A stretch of DNA of 17,225 nucleotides from a virus (Duplodnaviria; Heunggongvirae; Uroviricota; Caudoviricetes): the IMG/VR virus record IMGVR_UViG_2537561992_000019. One strand, given 5' to 3'. The notes beneath the pieces were generated by a model. The model was not told where the DNA came from and did not search any database. It saw only the letters and a program-made list of their open reading frames with translations. Position numbers and translations under genes: made by a program. Positions 535 through 15,407 of the stretch are shown here, in pieces (the first letter of the stretch is position 1; every line of letters starts with the position of its first letter).

Positions 535-630
535 AAGAAATGAAAAAAGGCCACGCAGTTGCGCAGCCTGATAAACCCTGGTTAAAATCCACACGATAAC
601 AACACAACAATATCAGTATCTCATGCTATT

Positions 631-655
631 GCCCGAACCCATTCGGGCATTTTTT
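631..655 (+). terminator. rho-independent terminator-like hairpin (GCCCGAA-CCCA-TTCGGGC followed by T6)
   Basis: GC-rich stem with T-run on the plus strand; forms a back-to-back pair with the minus-strand hairpin at 661..684. Confidence 0.45.
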
Positions 656-660
656 ACCCA

Positions 661-684
661 TAAAAAGCCCCTCCGGAGAGGGGC
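661..684 (-). terminator. rho-independent terminator-like hairpin (GCCCCTC-TCCG-GAGGGGC followed by U5 on the minus strand)
   Basis: A-run 662..666 on plus gives the U-tract on minus; sits downstream of the TerB-like/membrane gene pair. Confidence 0.5.
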
Positions 685-808
685 ATGTTTGCATGCACAT
701 TCTTTTTCTTGTATGGTGCCGGGTGCCTCCCGGTGAATTCAGTATCAGCACCTAAATCCGCGATTATCCCATATACCTGGTTGCTGATCGCCCTCCGCAC
801 AGGGGGAT

Positions 809-1018
809 TCACCATGCAGAAGTGTTTTTAATAAACAGCAAACAAAAAAACCAAGCATTATGCAGGCTGTTTCTTTTTATCACCGGCCACAGCAATACCA
901 CAATGCCGCAGACCAGCACCCCATCCGCCAGCACCGACATGATTCTGCTGGTGAAATCCACCATCACCACCAGAAACAGCAGGAGTGCAGCCACAGCCAG
1001 GCGCAGTTTTACCGTCAC
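809..1018 (-). CDS. small predicted membrane protein, 69 aa, two hydrophobic helices
   Basis: GTG at 1018..1016 overlaps the TerB-like stop (GTGA). Hydrophobic stretches LRLAVAALLLFLVVMV and GVLVCGIVVLLWPVI. Alternative ATG start at 964. Could be a non-coding tail. Confidence 0.35.
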   Translation of the reverse strand: MTVKLRLAVAALLLFLVVMVDFTSRIMSVLADGVLVCGIVVLLWPVIKRNSLHNAWFFCLLFIKNTSAW

Positions 1019-1615: not shown

Positions 1616-1692
1616 TGGCGCGTTGTAGTGGAGTCGAACCACTGACCGATTGCTTAGAAGGCAATTGCTCTGTCCGGCTGAGCTAACAACGC
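1616..1692 (-). tRNA. tRNA-Arg (anticodon UCU), 77 nt, phage-encoded
   Basis: Hand-folded cloverleaf: 7-bp acceptor stem GCGTTGT/ACAACGC, anticodon loop CTTCTAA, T-arm GTGG-TTCGACT-CCAC, encoded CCA end. Confidence 0.9.
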
Positions 1693-1792: not shown

Positions 1793-1868
1793 TGGTGGCC
1801 CTTGCTGGATTTGAACCAGCGACCTGGCGATTATGAGTCGCTCGCTCTCACCACTGAGCTAAAGGGCC
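1793..1868 (-). tRNA. tRNA with CAU anticodon, 76 nt (Ile2/lysidine type by recalled similarity to E. coli ileX; Met not excluded)
   Basis: Acceptor stem GGCCCTT/AAGGGCC, anticodon loop CTCATAA, T-arm GCTGG-TTCAAAT-CCAGC, encoded CCA end. Confidence 0.85.
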
Positions 1869-3627: not shown

Positions 3628-4182
3628 CTAAGCGTCAGTAAAAGAAAATGCATCTCGCATCAGTGGATACAGAATAAACTCAGCTATTCTCAGCCACATA
3701 TCTATACGATTGCGGCATGTTGCATAGCACCACTCAGGGTGAACCTCATTCAACAATTCAGCCATTTTGCGTTTACTCATCCCCCGCCCTTCGTATCTTT
3801 GCCGCAGGATATCAATCAATCCAGGATAACGTGCAAGCGCTTTACTTATCACCCCATCAATGCGTAACGCCTCTGCATCAGTACAGTGAGACAACCAGCT
3901 CTTCTGTCTGCCAGCGATCATCTCTCGCAAGAATGCTTCCAGCTCTGGTTTATCAATCCCTGACTCCCTGATTCTACGCAGGGCTTCATTGATTGCGGTT
4001 TTTGTCAGTTTTTTGGATGCCAGCAACTGATTGAACATATTTCCTGTTTTGCTACCACCTATATACGACCAACGCCCCCACATCCGTAATTTCCCCTGGA
4101 TCCAGACGGCTTCCAGCGTTTTTAGACGTAAATGCTCGCCGCTTTTGCCTGTAATTTCCGGGTATATCATATTTACGATCAC
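3628..4182 (-). CDS. putative late-gene antiterminator Q, 184 aa (GTG 4182) or 180 aa (ATG 4170)
   Basis: Assigned by position only: directly after rusA and directly before a strong terminator and the late-region island. No motif confirmed. Confidence 0.45.
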   Translation of the reverse strand: MIVNMIYPEITGKSGEHLRLKTLEAVWIQGKLRMWGRWSYIGGSKTGNMFNQLLASKKLTKTAINEALRRIRESGIDKPELEAFLREMIAGRQKSWLSHCTDAEALRIDGVISKALARYPGLIDILRQRYEGRGMSKRKMAELLNEVHPEWCYATCRNRIDMWLRIAEFILYPLMRDAFSFTDA

Positions 4183-5601: not shown

Positions 5602-5880
5602 TTACCTCCAGATGCGTTGCTGGAATGTGCGGGACGGACGCGGTGGTCGTTCGGAGTAAGGAAGCCTGACGGAGATTATCCAGTGACGATAATCGAGGCT
5701 GAGGGCTTTCTTAATCTCGTATCCGTGTCTGCGGTAGCACTGAATTAGCCACTCGGCCTGTTCTTCAGTGCATGGGGGATGCTGGAACCAGTCAGATTTG
5801 AAAGTGCGGGAACGCCGCCCGTGCCTGCTGGCAGGGGCGGCAGAGTTATCCGAATTGTAAAATTTGGTATCGTGCGCCAT
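5602..5880 (-). CDS. rem: Rem-like small protein, 92 aa
   Basis: ATG at 5880..5878 (MAHDTKFYNSDNS); sits between the DUF968 gene and hok as rem does in Qin (recalled). Confidence 0.5.
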   Translation of the reverse strand: MAHDTKFYNSDNSAAPASRHGRRSRTFKSDWFQHPPCTEEQAEWLIQCYRRHGYEIKKALSLDYRHWIISVRLPYSERPPRPSRTFQQRIWR

Positions 5881-5950
5881 CTGTTTTCTCTGCTGGCGCA
5901 GCAGGTGCCAGTTGTTCAGGCTGACGGATGGATTGTAAACCAGAACGACC

Positions 5951-5979
5951 AGAAAAAACAAAACCCGCCGAAGCGGGTT
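5951..5979 (-). terminator. rho-independent terminator at the 3' end of the hok transcript
   Basis: Minus-strand hairpin AACCCGC-UUCG-GCGGGUU followed by UUUGUUUUUUCU. Confidence 0.55.
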
Positions 5980-6047
5980 AAGTGCGGGTGCGTTGAGGAT
6001 GCCTGACACATCAGCGGTGGCGAGGGATTTCTCCCCCGCCTGGTCTC

Positions 6048-6203
6048 TTACTCCTCAGGTTCGTAAGCTGTGAAGACAGCGACCTCCGTCTGGCCGGTTC
6101 GGATTCGTACCTCGCAGAGGTCTTTCCTCGTTACCAGTGCCGTCACTATGACGGTTAAACAGATGACGATCAGGGCGATTAACATCGCCTTTTGCTGCTT
6201 CAT
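6048..6203 (-). CDS. hokD: Hok-family type I toxin, 51 aa
   Basis: MKQQKAMLIALIVICLTVIVTALVTRKDLCEVRIRTGQTEVAVFTAYEPEE matches HokD/RelF as I recall it; ATG at 6203..6201 with AGGAGA Shine-Dalgarno. Confidence 0.9.
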   Translation of the reverse strand: MKQQKAMLIALIVICLTVIVTALVTRKDLCEVRIRTGQTEVAVFTAYEPEE

Positions 6204-6375
6204 AACCTGCTTCTCCTTGCCTTTCGGCGCGTAAGAGGCTAACCTACGTTTGTGAAGCATAGATTGGGCCTCAGATTAATGTTAAGCGTCTTGCAGGACG
6301 CGTAATGTTAACTGGGGCTTTTCTCTGTCTGCCTTACGGTGGCATGCCCGAGGCAGACAGCCTCAAGCACCCGCA
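6204..6375 (-). promoter_or_regulatory. hok mRNA 5' leader, including a mok-like in-frame start at 6260
   Basis: 5' end sequence UGCGGGUGCUUGAGGCUGUCUGCCUC resembles the 5' end of plasmid R1 hok mRNA (recalled) and is complementary to the 3' end at 5983..5998. Confidence 0.5.
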
Positions 6376-6378
6376 GCA

Positions 6379-6406
6379 ATTCTACTTAACTCTCGCTTTA
6401 CAGCAA
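6379..6406 (-). promoter_or_regulatory. candidate sigma-70 promoter of hok mRNA (-35 TTGCTG, 16-nt spacer, -10 TAGAAT)
   Basis: Hexamers read on the minus strand, correctly placed 5-7 nt upstream of the inferred 5' end. Confidence 0.4.
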
Positions 6407-6446
6407 ACCGTTTTGCCCGATATGGGAATTCCCATACGGAATGAAT

Positions 6447-6551
6447 TCAGTTCCCCAGGCGCTCCATCAAAAACACAACCAGGCAGTAAACACCCACAAC
6501 AGCAATAACAGCCAGAGCGCCTTCCATTACCAGTGAAATATCATCCGACAT
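6447..6551 (-). CDS. 34-aa hydrophobic peptide (MSDDISLVMEGALAVIAVVGVYCLVVFLMERLGN)
   Basis: ATG at 6551..6549 preceded by GGGAGGG at ideal spacing; single predicted transmembrane helix. Below the ORF-track size cutoff. Confidence 0.4.
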   Translation of the reverse strand: MSDDISLVMEGALAVIAVVGVYCLVVFLMERLGN

Positions 6552-6660
6552 ATTCCCTCCCTTGGTGTGAATCCCGGCGAACGTTTTTACCCCCACCGAC
6601 AAATAACATATACTAGAAAAGCAATAGCTATAGCAACGCCTGCAAATGCATCTGGCCGGC

Positions 6661-7224
6661 TCATTGGTTCTCCCCCTGTGTCGCTTCTACTGCGATCTGA
6701 CTGGCGTATTCGTTAATGGTAACGATAAGTTCTTGCTCGGCCTCATCCAGACAACTACCGATACCTCGCCTGTCCACTTCAGAAGCATCGAAATCTGCAC
6801 GAAGCCTGGCGACCTTCAGGATTGCGGACAACACCTCATCAGGGATTGCCGGAGAGTTGGTTGACGTTTCCGAGATTATCCGAAAATTATTGGTTGACGA
6901 ACCCTTATTTTCCCGAAAGTTTCCAGCCTGAAGCATGGCGGCGCGGTGACACCAGATAATCCAGCCAAGCGCCATATCCCATGCCATGTATTCTCTATCG
7001 CCATTTTTTGCTCTGCGGCGATCTACAGATTCCCCGAAACGCTTCTCCATAAATAATTCATAGGCTGCCCGTTCATCCGATACTGATGCCAGTGATGCCA
7101 GTGCAATTTTTAATGCGGTAAGCATGTTGTTTTGATCTTCATCGAGTCCGAACGGTATTTCATCCCGTGATGACTCAATTCCGGTAATCGTGTACTGTAG
7201 CCATTCTTTGGTTAATTCAGTCAT
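6661..7224 (-). CDS. hypothetical protein, 187 aa, acidic, predicted helical
   Basis: ATG at 7224..7222; GC hairpin ACCGCCC-TTTC-GGGCGGT at 7234..7251 just upstream. No recognisable motif. Confidence 0.6.
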   Translation of the reverse strand: MTELTKEWLQYTITGIESSRDEIPFGLDEDQNNMLTALKIALASLASVSDERAAYELFMEKRFGESVDRRRAKNGDREYMAWDMALGWIIWCHRAAMLQAGNFRENKGSSTNNFRIISETSTNSPAIPDEVLSAILKVARLRADFDASEVDRRGIGSCLDEAEQELIVTINEYASQIAVEATQGENQ

Positions 7225-11161: not shown

Positions 11162-11307
11162 GAATCCCCCTTTCCTTCGCCCTGAGTGGTATCCTTCTTT
11201 TTGTAAAGTTCTGGGTTCAAAGATAATTTCCCCTTGGAGTATGCAGCAGCTTCCGCAGCCCTCCCCTTCGGAACTATTTCACCAGGACGCTTACGCCACA
11301 TGTAAAT
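11161..11307 (-). pseudogene. cro: cro-like gene, 3' fragment (48 codons plus the duplicated ATT codon)
   Basis: Joins in frame with the 5' fragment at 13535..13615 once the IS and inverted segment are removed. Confidence 0.7.
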
Positions 11308-11350
11308 TGAGGTGTACTGGCAATAGCGGACACTACCATTTGTTCTTTTT

Positions 11351-12255
11351 TTAAGCAGCCATCTGATGATATTTTTCCCTGAAGGCTGCCGGGGAGATAT
11401 TCCCCAGACGAGAGTGACGACGCTGACGATTGTAGAAAATCTCAATGTATTCCCGTATTACTGAGATGGCTTCATCCCGGTTATTAAAACGATAGTGGCT
11501 CAGGCTCTCATTTTTCAGCGTTCCCCAGAAGCTTTCCATCGGAGCGTTGTCGTAACAGTTACCTTTACGCGACATTGATGTTTTCAGACCAAACTGCTCC
11601 TGTATGACCCGGTAATCGTATGCGCAGTACTGTGAACCTCGATCAGAGTGGTGGATTAGCCCGGCAGGTGGGCGCTGGCTCCTGAGCGCCATAAACAGAG
11701 CTTTACCTGTCAGCTCTTTTGTCATGCGCTCTCCCATGGCGTAGCCGACAATTTCGCACGTATAAACATCTTTGATGCCAGCGAGGTACAACCATCCCTC
11801 CTGTGTGGCAACATACGTCAGGTCCGCCACCCAGACCTGATTTGGTGCTGTAGGAGCGAACGTCTGGTTCAGCAGATTTGGCGCAACTGGCAGATTGTGG
11901 TTCGAGTTCGTAGTCGCTCTGAACTTGCGTTTCTGCTTACAGCGTAGCCTTAGCTCCTTACGAAGACGTGCCAGTCGGTCACGACCAACGATGATGCCAT
12001 TCTCTGCCAGCTCCGTCTGGAGCCGCCGGGTTCCATATGTTTCGCGAGTGCGGATATGTGCCACCTTAATCTCCAGTTTTAGCCGCTCATCACTTTGTTT
12101 CTGTCTGAGGGTTCATGCTGTACCCAGTTGTAATAACCGCTCCTGGATACACCAAATACCTGACACATCGCTTCAATGGGAAATTGTTGTCGCCATTGTT
12201 CGATTAACGCGTATTTTTCAGCGACTCCTGTGCAAAATACGCTGTTGCTTTTTTT
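11351..12255 (-). pseudogene. IS3-family transposase orfB, frameshifted by a 1-bp deletion
   Basis: TTT at 12098..12100 where copy 2 has AAAA at 14086..14089, truncating the OrfAB frame. Confidence 0.7.
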
Positions 12256-12506
12256 AATATATCTCGCTCAAGGCGAGCTTCATTTAACGCCTTACGCAGT
12301 TGCAGAATTTCAGATTCCAGTTCAGCCACCGTGCGGGAACCAGGAGTACCGAGCCCTTTTCTGGCGGCGGTAACCCATTGTCCTAAAGTGCCTTCAGGAA
12401 GAGATAATCGGGAAGCGCCTTCACTGATCGAAAGTTGATTTTCAAGAACCGTTCTGACAGCTTCGGCTTTGAACTCTTTAGAGTAACGTTGGGTTTTTCT
12501 GCTCAT
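12204..12506 (-). CDS. IS3-family transposase OrfA, 100 aa
   Basis: Protein identical to OrfA of copy 2; HTH-containing N-terminal transposase part. Confidence 0.85.
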   Translation of the reverse strand: MSRKTQRYSKEFKAEAVRTVLENQLSISEGASRLSLPEGTLGQWVTAARKGLGTPGSRTVAELESEILQLRKALNEARLERDILKKATAYFAQESLKNTR

Positions 12507-12698
12507 TATTAGCTCCTTCTGATGCCATTCTATTTCAGGAAGGAGTGTCCGTTAAACTCAGGCTACCTCACTGTTATACAAAGTGTTCCCGCCGTCATGT
12601 TCATACGCCTCGGGCTGGCTACTTAACCCCTGACCACTGCCGGGTAACTCGAGGTATTGCCCGACGTTCTGTGGGGCGAGGTAGGGTGGTATGTAATA

Positions 12699-12727
12699 AA
12701 TCTAAAAGTATTTAGTTTTTCAGTCAA
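12699..12727 (-). promoter_or_regulatory. candidate PL-like promoter (-35 TTGACT, 17-nt spacer, -10 TAGATT) with overlapping operator 12700..12717
   Basis: Hexamers read on the minus strand; operator ATCTAA-N6-TTAGTT overlaps the -10; palindrome AATCTAGATT at 12732..12741. Confidence 0.4.
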
Positions 12728-12746
12728 GATAAATCTAGATTAATTT

Positions 12747-12772
12747 AAAAAAAAGGTCGGCATTGCCGACCT
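12747..12772 (-). terminator. rho-independent terminator directly after the cI stop
   Basis: Hairpin GGTCGGC-ATT-GCCGACC followed by U8 on the minus strand. Confidence 0.6.
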
Positions 12773-12792
12773 CAAGTAAAGGACGTGGCGGG

Positions 12793-13440
12793 TTATAAGT
12801 TGAACTGTACACCTTTTGCTACGGCAACAATTTTACACTCTGGTGTAAGTAAGGATGACTGATAGCGTGGATTGAGAGGGCTTAAATACACAAGCTTCCC
12901 ATCAATAACTAATTTCTTTATAGTCATAGATGGTTCATTTTTAAGCGGATCCGGAACTATTACAGCGACGATGCTGCCATTTTTATAACTTTCTCCTGGC
13001 CTTAGGATCACAGTAGCACCAACTGGGATACTCGGTGATCCTGATGGGTTATGCATTGTGTCATCAGGCATTGAAACGGCAAAATCACCTTCCTCGACAT
13101 CAAAGAATGTGGTGATCCTATCGACATTTCCCATTGTTTTCTCTCCTTTTAAGATTAGGAAAGAAATCGCCTCACCCCACGAAAGGTAGGGGATCTTGGT
13201 GCCTGAGGTACTTTGTACAAAAGATAATTCAGGAGACGATACTCCATATAGGAGATAGGACTCAGTAGTTCCTAATGCCTGGGCTAACTTACTTAGAGCT
13301 TTGCTACCTGGTTCGTTTAGATCTTTCTCCCAGTACCCTATAGTAACCCCAGTCACGCCTGAAAGCTTACCCAGTTCTACTTGGGTCAGCCCCTTATCTT
13401 TTCTAAGTCTCTTAAGCCTGATGCCAAGGCTTTCCATCAT
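12793..13440 (-). CDS. cI: CI-like prophage repressor, 215 aa (N-terminal HTH, C-terminal LexA-like S24 peptidase)
   Basis: ATG at 13440..13438 preceded by AGGAGAAA. HTH LTQVELGKLSGVTGVTIGYWE; S24 region with Ser in AVSM and Lys in TIKKL, resembling lambda CI (recalled). Confidence 0.85.
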   Translation of the reverse strand: MMESLGIRLKRLRKDKGLTQVELGKLSGVTGVTIGYWEKDLNEPGSKALSKLAQALGTTESYLLYGVSSPELSFVQSTSGTKIPYLSWGEAISFLILKGEKTMGNVDRITTFFDVEEGDFAVSMPDDTMHNPSGSPSIPVGATVILRPGESYKNGSIVAVIVPDPLKNEPSMTIKKLVIDGKLVYLSPLNPRYQSSLLTPECKIVAVAKGVQFNL

Positions 13441-13479
13441 TTTCTCCTGCAAATTGAATATAAATTATTTTAGATTGCA

Positions 13480-13522
13480 TTGACCTAAAAAAAATTATCT
13501 TGTAATCTAAAAATACTTAGAT
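13480..13522 (+). promoter_or_regulatory. candidate PR-like promoter (-35 TTGACC, 17-nt spacer, -10 TAATCT) with perfect operator ATCTAA-N6-TTAGAT at 13505..13522
   Basis: Read directly; drives the cro fragment, which has AGGAGG Shine-Dalgarno and ATG at 13535. Confidence 0.45.
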
Positions 13523-13534
13523 TTAGGAGGTAAA

Positions 13535-13615
13535 ATGCGAGTTGATGAACTTGTCCAGTTTTTTGGTTCTGTTCAGAGGGTTGCCGATTTTTATGGGATA
13601 ACCCGCGAAGCTATT
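13535..13615 (+). pseudogene. cro: cro-like gene, 5' fragment (27 codons), truncated by the IS insertion
   Basis: MRVDELVQFFGSVQRVADFYGITREAI; the next codon is TGA supplied by the first bases of the IS. Confidence 0.7.
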
Positions 13616-13679
13616 TGAGGTAGCCTGAGTTTAACGGACACTCCTTCCTGAAATAGAATGGCATCAGAAGGAGCTAATA

Positions 13680-13982
13680 ATGAGCAGAAAAACCCAACGT
13701 TACTCTAAAGAGTTCAAAGCCGAAGCTGTCAGAACGGTTCTTGAAAATCAACTTTCGATCAGTGAAGGCGCTTCCCGATTATCTCTTCCTGAAGGCACTT
13801 TAGGACAATGGGTTACCGCCGCCAGAAAAGGGCTCGGTACTCCTGGTTCCCGCACGGTGGCTGAACTGGAATCTGAAATTCTGCAACTGCGTAAGGCGTT
13901 AAATGAAGCTCGCCTTGAGCGAGATATATTAAAAAAAGCAACAGCGTATTTTGCACAGGAGTCGCTGAAAAATACGCGTTAA
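13680..13982 (+). CDS. IS3-family transposase OrfA, 100 aa
   Basis: ATG at 13680 after GAAGGAG; contains the A7G run at 13931..13938 near its 3' end. Confidence 0.85.
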   Translation: MSRKTQRYSKEFKAEAVRTVLENQLSISEGASRLSLPEGTLGQWVTAARKGLGTPGSRTVAELESEILQLRKALNEARLERDILKKATAYFAQESLKNTR

Positions 13983-14836
13983 TCGAACAATGGCGACAAC
14001 AATTTCCCATTGAAGCGATGTGTCAGGTATTTGGTGTATCCAGGAGCGGTTATTACAACTGGGTACAGCATGAACCCTCAGACAGAAAACAAAGTGATGA
14101 GCGGCTAAAACTGGAGATTAAGGTGGCACATATCCGCACTCGCGAAACATATGGAACCCGGCGGCTCCAGACGGAGCTGGCAGAGAATGGCATCATCGTT
14201 GGTCGTGACCGACTGGCACGTCTTCGTAAGGAGCTAAGGCTACGCTGTAAGCAGAAACGCAAGTTCAGAGCGACTACGAACTCGAACCACAATCTGCCAG
14301 TTGCGCCAAATCTGCTGAACCAGACGTTCGCTCCTACAGCACCAAATCAGGTCTGGGTGGCGGACCTGACGTATGTTGCCACACAGGAGGGATGGTTGTA
14401 CCTCGCTGGCATCAAAGATGTTTATACGTGCGAAATTGTCGGCTACGCCATGGGAGAGCGCATGACAAAAGAGCTGACAGGTAAAGCTCTGTTTATGGCG
14501 CTCAGGAGCCAGCGCCCACCTGCCGGGCTAATCCACCACTCTGATCGAGGTTCACAGTACTGCGCATACGATTACCGGGTCATACAGGAGCAGTTTGGTC
14601 TGAAAACATCAATGTCGCGTAAAGGTAACTGTTACGACAACGCTCCGATGGAAAGCTTCTGGGGAACGCTGAAAAATGAGAGCCTGAGCCACTATCGTTT
14701 TAATAACCGGGATGAAGCCATCTCAGTAATACGGGAATACATTGAGATTTTCTACAATCGTCAGCGTCGTCACTCTCGTCTGGGGAATATCTCCCCGGCA
14801 GCCTTCAGGGAAAAATATCATCAGATGGCTGCTTAA
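13931..14836 (+). CDS. IS3-family transposase orfB segment, expressed as an OrfAB fusion by programmed -1 frameshift
   Basis: The -1 frame is open from the A7G run to the stop at 14836; first in-frame ATG is at 14018. C-terminal half has the IS3-family catalytic region (HSDRGSQY, MSRKGNCYDNAPMESFW). Confidence 0.8.
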   Translation, partial: KKSNSVFCTGVAEKYALIEQWRQQFPIEAMCQVFGVSRSGYYNWVQHEPSDRKQSDERLKLEIKVAHIRTRETYGTRRLQTELAENGIIVGRDRLARLRKELRLRCKQKRKFRATTNSNHNLPVAPNLLNQTFAPTAPNQVWVADLTYVATQEGWLYLAGIKDVYTCEIVGYAMGERMTKELTGKALFMALRSQRPPAGLIHHSDRGSQYCAYDYRVIQEQFGLKTSMSRKGNCYDNAPMESFWGTLKNESLSHYRFNNRDEAISVIREYIEIFYNRQRRHSRLGNISPAAFREKYHQMAA

Positions 14837-14934
14837 AAAAAGAACAAATGGTAGTGTCCGCTATTGCCAGTACACCTCACAGCGCAGCAGGTTTTTAGTT
14901 CCGCGACCCGGCGTTAAGGGTAAATGAGGTCAAC

Positions 14935-15349: not shown

Positions 15350-15407
15350 TTTCTGGTGACGTTTGGCGGTATCAGTTTTACTCCGTGACTGCTCTGCCGC
15401 CCTTTTT
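15350..15407 (+). ncRNA. dicF: DicF small RNA (53 nt, 15350..15402) plus its terminator U-tract
   Basis: TTTCTGGTGACGTTTGGCGGTATCAGTTTTACTCCGTGACTGCTCTGCCGCCC followed by TTTTT matches E. coli DicF as I recall it; lies just upstream of dicB. Confidence 0.8.

Follow-up and report, generated by a model that had tools for sequence, protein, structure and literature searches.

Introduction

Toxin–antitoxin modules of the hok/sok family are numerous in enterobacteria: their chromosomes carry many hok/sok loci (PMC1635323), O157 Sakai has 14 Hok/Gef genes (PMC2887945), and hok is enriched in prophages (bioRxiv 10.1101/2025.08.07.668861). A close and experimentally characterised relative of the locus described here is hokW-sokW of the Stx2 phages Sp5/VT2-Sakai and 933W of O157:H7. 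HokW is toxic and is neutralised by sokW expressed from its own promoter, mutation of which showed it to be required for antitoxin activity; both RNAs are seen on Northern blots, the sokW RNA is lost in a RecA-dependent manner after mitomycin C, and deletion of hokW-sokW leads to a two-fold lower release of Sp5 phage (PMC8621323). The mechanistic archetype is the hok/sok (parB) locus of plasmid R1/IncFII, where a rearrangement to tac/ucb and Shine-Dalgarno (SD)/dcb pairing makes the truncated hok mRNA translatable and accessible to Sok (PMC9841398). A further relative is hokD (relF) of the Qin prophage of E. coli K-12, whose product is toxic when overexpressed (bioRxiv 10.1101/2025.08.07.668861).

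Here we analyse a copy of this family in a 17,225-nt stretch of viral DNA (IMG/VR record IMGVR_UViG_2537561992_000019; hereafter the window). The region is very probably a complete type I toxin–antitoxin module of the hok/sok family, hokD/hokW type, within a DicF-type lambdoid prophage of E. coli O157:H7. The original prediction, made from the nucleotide sequence alone, had proposed a complete hok/sok-type locus, and all the elements that it named were recovered at or beside the places assigned to them. The module is an ordinary copy of a well-described RNA-controlled family and already known.

Genomic context

The region 5900..6450 is 100 % identical to the chromosome of O157:H7 strain PV15-279 and of other STEC strains, and STEC chromosomes match the whole window with 99.9 % identity over 87 % of its length. 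In the matching DNA the genes, all on the minus strand, run from replication protein P through several hypothetical proteins to hokD, and from there through a 92-aa hypothetical protein and DUF968 to RusA; RusA is followed, again on the minus strand, by the Q antiterminator in one matching record and by a DUF1133 protein in the other. Further along, the matching O157/STEC records have a Cro/CI switch and dicB, and Rfam searches of the window additionally recovered DicF, AgvB, STnc100 and two tRNAs. This gene order, together with DicF and the other associated elements, places the locus in the nin-like region (replication-to-Q) of a Qin/DicF-type prophage.

The upstream neighbours are hypothetical proteins of 34 and 187 aa, and relBE is absent from both the list of open reading frames (ORFs) and the annotation of the identical DNA, bearing out the expectation that the locus would have no relBE neighbours. 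Two tiny hydrophobic ORFs upstream of hok had no match in Pfam or PHROG searches. At present the RefSeq annotation marks the hok coding sequence alone, leaving mok, Sok and the mRNA unmarked.

The toxin and the mok reading frame

The comparative analysis drew on 53 loci of representative genomes and 80 of viral contigs, which were reduced to 58 non-redundant transcripts and compared together with that of the window (59 in all). This set spans Escherichia, Kluyvera, Photorhabdus, Pantoea, Erwinia, Citrobacter and others.

The hok ORF called in the original prediction (6203..6048, minus strand; 51 aa), preceded by an SD sequence GGAG at 6216..6213, matches the Pfam Hok/Gef family PF01848 with 82.9 bits (cut-off 22) and PHROG 251, 'MokW-like host killing', with E = 2.8e-33. 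Its product is the same protein as K-12 HokD, listed as WP_000813254.1 in O157 and K-12 records alike. HokW, likewise of 51 aa, shares 47 of its 51 residues with it (92 %; four differ), whereas R1 Hok is 42 % identical.

An in-frame mok ORF of 70 aa (6048..6260, minus strand), which contains hok, is present in the ORF list and corresponds to the annotated mokW of VT2-Sakai; as here, an in-frame mok ATG lies 57 nt upstream of the hok ATG in 42 of the 59 homologues. The mok SD sequence GAGG (6269..6272, minus strand) is located 8 nt upstream of the mok ATG, and its alignment columns G101, A102, G103 and G104 are invariant across all 59. The predicted mok frame, with an SD of its own, overlaps hok, and from work on R1 and hokW we infer that hok would be translated by coupling to mok.

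Promoter, leader and transcript ends

The candidate promoter of the original prediction (6379..6406, minus strand) combines a -35 hexamer TTGCTG (6406..6401), a 16-nt spacer and a -10 hexamer TAGAAT (6384..6379). Its -10 placement is conserved: 58 of the 59 homologues have a TAnnnT hexamer that precedes the conserved GGG start by exactly 6 nt, and hokW has the very same TAGAAT. The -35, matching consensus at 3 of 6 positions, is weak. A generic sigma-70 scan (threshold 9/12) flagged neither this promoter nor that of Sok because both score below its threshold, and by consensus both look weak (3/6 for the hok -35, 7/12 for the Sok promoter). They are supported instead by positional conservation, in the case of the hok -10, and by hexamer identity to sokW.

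The hok leader model RF01794 matches 6372..6198 (minus strand) with 114.9 bits against a gathering cut-off of 59, over model positions 1-157, i.e. from GGGUGCUUGAGG to the hok AUG. Model position 1 falls on 6372, the first base of the 5' end GGGUGCUUGAGG. Among the controls, hokW scored 113.5 bits and the R1-type locus 87.2 bits, both in the same orientation, and K-12 hokD, the negative control, gave no match. That an Rfam model named 'sok' should match the sense strand of hok might be read as contradicting an antisense gene; we rejected this reading, since the model represents the leader strand and the controls behave alike. The resemblance of the 5' end to that of R1 hok mRNA was likewise upheld: GGGUGCUUGAGG aligns with GGCGCUUGAGG, the start of an IncFII R1-type hok locus, both being of the form GG(G/C)(U)GCUUGAGG.

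With the 5' end placed by Rfam and by alignment to the R1-type and hokW loci, and the 3' end by the terminator, the predicted full-length hok mRNA extends over 5955..6372 (minus strand), i.e. ~418 nt (6372..~5955), in good agreement with the ~420 nt first proposed. The intrinsic terminator had been correctly located at 5951..5979: the terminator scan finds a stem at 5979..5962 followed by a T-run to 5951 on the minus strand, and this is the sole terminator predicted on that strand within 5700..6700.

Predicted long-range pairing of the mRNA ends

The first 12 nt of the mRNA, GGGUGCUUGAGG (6361..6372, minus strand), constitute the predicted translational activator element (tac), as seen in the full-length and trimmed folds and by RNAalifold. 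Its partner is the fold-back inhibition element (fbi), CCUCAACGCACCC (5986..5998, minus strand), which forms a duplex with tac and is conserved with compensatory changes. The predicted helix, 6372..6361 with 5998..5986, comprises 12 bp and one bulge at -21.5 kcal/mol, and it is present in the minimum-free-energy fold of the full transcript. The original prediction had the 5' end at 6361..6375 complementary to 5983..5998. The pairing itself stands, with the boundaries given here, and 6373..6375, which precede the probable transcription start, would fall outside the RNA. With the 3' UTR replaced by dinucleotide shuffles the duplex averaged -14.3 ± 2.2 kcal/mol, 13 of 2000 reaching the observed -21.5, and when all 13-mers of the transcript were paired against fbi the 5'-terminal one was the best, the next non-overlapping 13-mer yielding -10.2 kcal/mol.

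The duplex is kept in 56 of the 59 loci, the three exceptions being visibly rearranged or decayed. Compensatory changes are seen at position 4 (U-A in most lineages, C-G in Photorhabdus and Pantoea), at position 12 (G-C, or A-U in Kluyvera and Photorhabdus) and at position 11 (A-U in a Citrobacter locus). In the MAFFT whole-transcript alignment the fbi of lineages lacking the bulge (e.g. Photorhabdus) lies one column out of register, as a result of which RNAalifold kept just two tac/fbi pairs and favoured the 5' metastable hairpin. Given this misregister, tac/fbi was judged sequence by sequence, through duplex folding and a test of cognate against permuted pairs: over 26 distinct variants, and uncorrected for shared ancestry, the cognate pairs exceed every one of 20000 random re-pairings in stability.

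The predicted folding switch and other conserved helices

The full-length hok mRNA has a predicted fold of -174.9 kcal/mol (z = -6.6), in which nt 1-12 pair with 5998..5986 and the mok SD is sequestered by the upstream complementary box (ucb, anti-SD). The latter is the AAGCCCCAG region at mRNA nt ~52-61 (6312..6321, minus strand), which emerges from both folds; in the full-length one the GAGG of the mok SD (6272..6269) is paired with the GCCCC box at ~6319..6313. When the last 45 nt are removed (6372..6000), tac is instead predicted to pair with AAGCCCC of ucb. In this trimmed fold alone, the GAGGC of the mok SD pairs with GCCUC (6240..6236), a nearly invariant block on the minus strand that would constitute the downstream complementary box (dcb; 6236..6240). 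Together the two modelled folds reproduce the switch of plasmid R1, with the processing site assumed from that analogy.

Across the 59 loci the RNAalifold consensus contains 64 pairs, and double changes occur in 19, a count uncorrected for shared ancestry. Alignment columns 3-13 pair with columns 20-30, position 4 of this helix being U-A in 44 sequences and C-G in 13. Here the partner of tac is the segment 6344..6354 (minus strand), and the hairpin made by tac and the next ~11 nt would correspond to the metastable structure of the nascent R1 hok mRNA, the role being taken from R1 (PMC9841398). In the 3' UTR, a stem-loop GGCGGGGGAGAAAUCCCUCGCC (6019..6040, minus strand; GGCGGGG...CCCCGCC) appears in both full-length and trimmed folds and has compensatory pairs, e.g. 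A-U in 33 sequences and G-C in 21. By comparison with R1 (PMC9841398), it likely marks the 3' end of the processed, translatable mRNA.

The predicted antisense Sok gene

On the plus strand the Sok promoter (6217..6245) comprises a -35 TTGCCT (6217..6222), a 17-nt spacer and a -10 TAACCT (6240..6245), the hexamers being just those originally picked out and the same as in sokW, which has been validated by experiment. The TTGCC of the -35, and A2 and T6 of the -10, fall on columns invariant in 59 of 59 loci. Taking the coordinates from the annotated 71-nt sokW misc_RNA of VT2-Sakai, the predicted Sok antisense RNA extends over 6252..6322 (plus strand), i.e. ~71 nt, and the earlier figure of ~65 nt has to be revised upwards. 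Its greater length relative to the ~64-nt Sok of R1 is due to a 16-nt insertion in the hairpin, seen in the Rfam alignment as an insertion relative to the consensus. The predicted RNA folds into a long hairpin followed by a UUUUCUCU U-tail (fold z = -4.3), and it is complementary to nt 51-121 of the hok mRNA, which include the mok SD and start codon. The promoter, the hairpin and the overlap with the mok start are thus all in place as those of a predicted antisense gene. At the level of sequence, every test for a complete hok/sok unit gave a positive result for this locus.

Comparison with the hokW, R1 and K-12 loci

Between the promoter and fbi, hokW-sokW and the present locus show 88.5 % identity, and they do not differ at all in tac, in the -10 of hok, in the two Sok hexamers (-35 and -10) or in fbi. 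In each, mok has 70 aa and is in frame with hok, Sok measures 71 nt and forms the same long hairpin, and the surrounding element is a lambdoid prophage of O157. They differ in the terminator and the downstream flank, and also in position: in the Stx2 phage genome hokW is situated towards the right end, the present copy between the replication genes and Q of its prophage. The published experiments concern hokW rather than the copy in the window.

R1 was represented in the comparison by a locus of an IncFII plasmid whose toxin is the R1 Hok protein. The architecture is the same, with a spacing from transcript start to hok ATG of 168 nt in R1 against 169 nt here, and a 5'/3' fold-back is present in the minimum-free-energy fold of each. 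Shared elements include the GAGGC at the mok SD, the AGCCUCUUAC...GCAAGGAGAAG block with the Sok promoter and the Hok/Gef toxin, despite an identity of ~55 % at the nucleotide level. The differences lie in the replicon, a plasmid as opposed to a prophage, in the insertion in the Sok hairpin noted above, and in the tac/fbi helix, which unlike that of R1 has a one-base bulge.

K-12 hokD, by contrast, encodes the identical toxin but matches the window over 5954..6217 only, with 98 % DNA identity. The common stretch covers the hok SD, the ORF, the 3' hairpin, fbi and the terminator: in pairwise alignment, identity begins at AGGAGAAGCAGG (the hok SD, ~6217) and stops in the T-run of the terminator. 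Upstream of this breakpoint the K-12 sequence is unrelated to the window and is the end of relE. The K-12 locus therefore has the relBE operon in place of the promoter, tac, ucb, mok SD and start, dcb and Sok promoter, and Rfam found no hok leader in its hokD region. That K-12 hokD sits beside relBE and lacks these elements, as the original prediction had it, is upheld by alignment, annotation and Rfam alike. The relE-hokD arrangement does not occur in the window, where the full leader is present and relBE absent. Both copies lie upstream of DUF968 and Q genes of a DicF-type prophage. Judged by sequence, the window copy occupies the same place in the prophage, beside the 92-aa ORF and the DUF968 gene, and is the intact form of what in K-12 is the truncated relBE-hokD.

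Mechanistic interpretation and biological role

Our analysis covers the sequence anatomy, predicted folds, conservation and covariation, and the K-12 breakpoint; 3' processing, translational coupling, decay by RNase III, membrane killing and the biological role we infer from work on R1 and hokW. On the plasmid R1 model, the weak promoter would give rise to a stable ~418-nt hok mRNA, in which tac would pair with fbi in the 3' UTR while ucb holds the mok ribosome-binding site in a closed form; the full-length RNA is therefore proposed to be neither translated nor bound by Sok. Slow trimming from the 3' end would take away fbi, whereupon tac would pair with ucb and the mok SD would be displayed in a new hairpin with dcb. 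The trimmed RNA could then either be translated, with mok coupled to hok, or be caught by the short-lived ~71-nt Sok, which would cover the mok SD and start codon, the resulting duplex being degraded. Were Sok synthesis to stop, Hok would be made, insert in the inner membrane and kill or lyse the cell. For the prophage, the most likely role, by analogy with hokW-sokW, would be help with lysis upon induction or prophage stabilisation.

That the locus is a decayed remnant, only superficially like a complete hok/sok unit, can be regarded as exceedingly improbable. Many chromosomal hok loci are inactivated, and both the truncated K-12 hokD and a homologue with a mutated tac (L005) illustrate such decay; against this, the unit here is free of frameshifts, stops and IS elements, has every element present with a full-length Rfam match (model positions 1-157), and its DNA is 100 % identical in several O157 genomes. 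A decayed remnant or a chance ORF was accordingly rejected, the unit being intact with all its elements. An intact sequence is, however, no guarantee of a plasmid-type phenotype: as far as the summary in bioRxiv 10.1101/2025.08.07.668861 goes, the native chromosomal hokA, hokB and hokC show neither post-segregational killing nor activation by rifampicin. The locus could thus be intact yet physiologically silent like other single-copy chromosomal loci, a prophage hitch-hiker whose RNAs are made but never yield enough Hok. The presence of up to 10 related copies per genome, whose Sok RNAs could cross-repress it, and the existence of decayed copies such as L005 and the K-12 relE fusion point the same way. 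Nonetheless, all regulatory elements have been kept with compensatory changes, which argues for ongoing selection, and the 88.5 %-identical hokW-sokW does have a phenotype, its deletion halving Sp5 release (PMC8621323); we consider silence a possible but unlikely state of the locus.

Two further readings grant the locus activity and differ over its use. The early-right (P–nin–Q) transcription path includes the copy, which has the orientation of that operon, and prophage induction could for this reason control it directly. Antiterminated read-through from pR would meet the Sok promoter head-on, silencing Sok and titrating it with sense RNA; Hok would serve as a lysis timer and the hok terminator as a nin-region terminator making Q N-dependent. 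This we put forward as a speculation with the balance well against it; if true, it could explain the RecA-dependent loss of sokW RNA after mitomycin C. Somewhat more doubtful still is that the locus chiefly defends the lysogen by abortive infection when lytic phages superinfect it, rather than serving lysis or maintenance of the prophage, with transcription shut-off depleting Sok and freeing Hok. Defence genes are frequent in prophages, where hok too is enriched, and R1 hok/sok lowers the plating efficiency and plaque size of T4, as far as the citation in PMC8621323 goes; but that effect came from a high-copy plasmid, hok is not enriched beside defence systems (bioRxiv 10.1101/2025.08.07.668861), and the sole tested prophage copy aided its own phage rather than blocking others (PMC8621323).

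Distribution and significance

Intact loci of the hokD/hokW type are common in lambdoid prophages and have been annotated and studied before, and the interest assigned to this one in the original prediction was too high. Its significance is mostly one of annotation, and no new principle emerges from it; since there are several near-identical copies per O157 genome, Sok cross-talk and a role in induction or lysis are reasonable questions to follow up. A 551-nt query comprising the locus matches 4739 of 5426 complete E. coli genomes, with a median of 2 places and up to 10 per matching genome, and in 3216 of the 5426 there is a copy covering at least 80 % of the query, i.e. approximately the whole unit. 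Matches extend to 79 phage records and 611 plasmid records, and the functional temperate phages mEp460 and Evi encode the identical protein, annotated as MokW/HokD.

The Rfam model RF01794 and the decay of related loci

The Rfam family RF01794 bears the name 'sok antitoxin (CssrC)', but its match in the window lies on the sense strand of the hok mRNA (6372..6198, minus strand). It is again the hok sense strand that is matched in the two control loci, namely the R1-type locus (L136, 232..403) and the hokW locus (L138, 282..456). In the family consensus, GGGUGCUUGAGG forms the start and the hok AUG marks the end. RF01794 as built is a model of the hok leader and not of the antisense Sok RNA; hence, strand calls derived from it can mislead annotation.

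Relatives of the locus illustrate different routes of decay. The K-12-type junction, wherein the end of relE is fused directly to the hok Shine-Dalgarno sequence, is also found in a contig of Kluyvera sp. CHPC 1.2972 (L027), where the hok beside the junction is 70 % identical. L027 is grouped here with L006, L043 and L091. A separate copy from E. coli ECMA0423 (L005) illustrates another such route: it keeps the layout of the locus, while its 5' element is mutated, with GACTGCATGTGGC instead of GGGTGCTTGAGGC.

Several HokD-like sequences are recorded under unrelated genera: Hok proteins 96-100 % identical to HokD are encoded on tiny contigs attributed to Acinetobacter idrijaensis (L017, 275 bp) and Xanthomonas pisi (L022, 431 bp), in a Candidatus Scatousia metagenome-assembled genome (L055) and in the Actinobacillus-attributed phage vB_Apl-pPE4 (PP818812.1). 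These probably reflect contamination with E. coli DNA or wrong host assignment rather than a real distribution.

A candidate site of mRNA editing in hok

TadA-mediated A-to-I editing is reported to recode a conserved tyrosine to cysteine in the hokB, hokC, hokD and hokE mRNAs (bioRxiv 10.1101/2025.08.07.668861). In the window, this tyrosine is specified by codon 47 of hok (6065..6062, minus strand), UAC with G as the next base, and the UACG falls within the 9-nt loop of a hairpin, closed by a stem of 3 bp, that is predicted in the fold of the hok mRNA. The surrounding TTACGAA is unchanged in the alignment of 59 homologues, which includes the window's own transcript. The edited base in the window copy is predicted to be A6064.

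Genomic setting of the locus in the prophage

The hok terminator (5951..5979, minus strand) is situated between the replication genes and the gene for the Q antiterminator (about 3628..4182, minus strand), all on the same strand. The predicted terminator may serve as a nin-type terminator, which early-operon transcripts would need to read through. Directly upstream of the hok promoter are two very small hydrophobic ORFs on the minus strand, one of 34 aa (6551..6447; MSDDISLVMEGALAVIAVVGVYCLVVFLMERLGN), annotated as the hypothetical protein WP_001278460.1, and the other of 25 aa (6664..6587; MSRPDAFAGVAIAIAFLVYVICRWG); neither had any match in Pfam or PHROG searches.

Further Rfam matches in the window are the prophage small RNAs AgvB (anti-GcvB), STnc100 and DicF and two tRNA genes, which jointly account for 594..655 (+), 846..656 (-), 1619..1692 (-), 1796..1868 (-) and 15351..15402 (+). 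The tRNAs are those for Arg and Ile in the annotation of the matching record, and the whole set is typical cargo of EHEC lambdoid prophages.

Two IS600 copies, inverted relative to each other (11307..12572 and 13616..14883), flank a 1046-bp segment (12571..13616) that carries the region of a LexA-family (cI-like) repressor. This segment is inverted with respect to both NZ_CP074924, whose prophage is otherwise 99.9 % identical, and NZ_AP018488; it appears that the immunity region underwent an inversion mediated by the IS copies.
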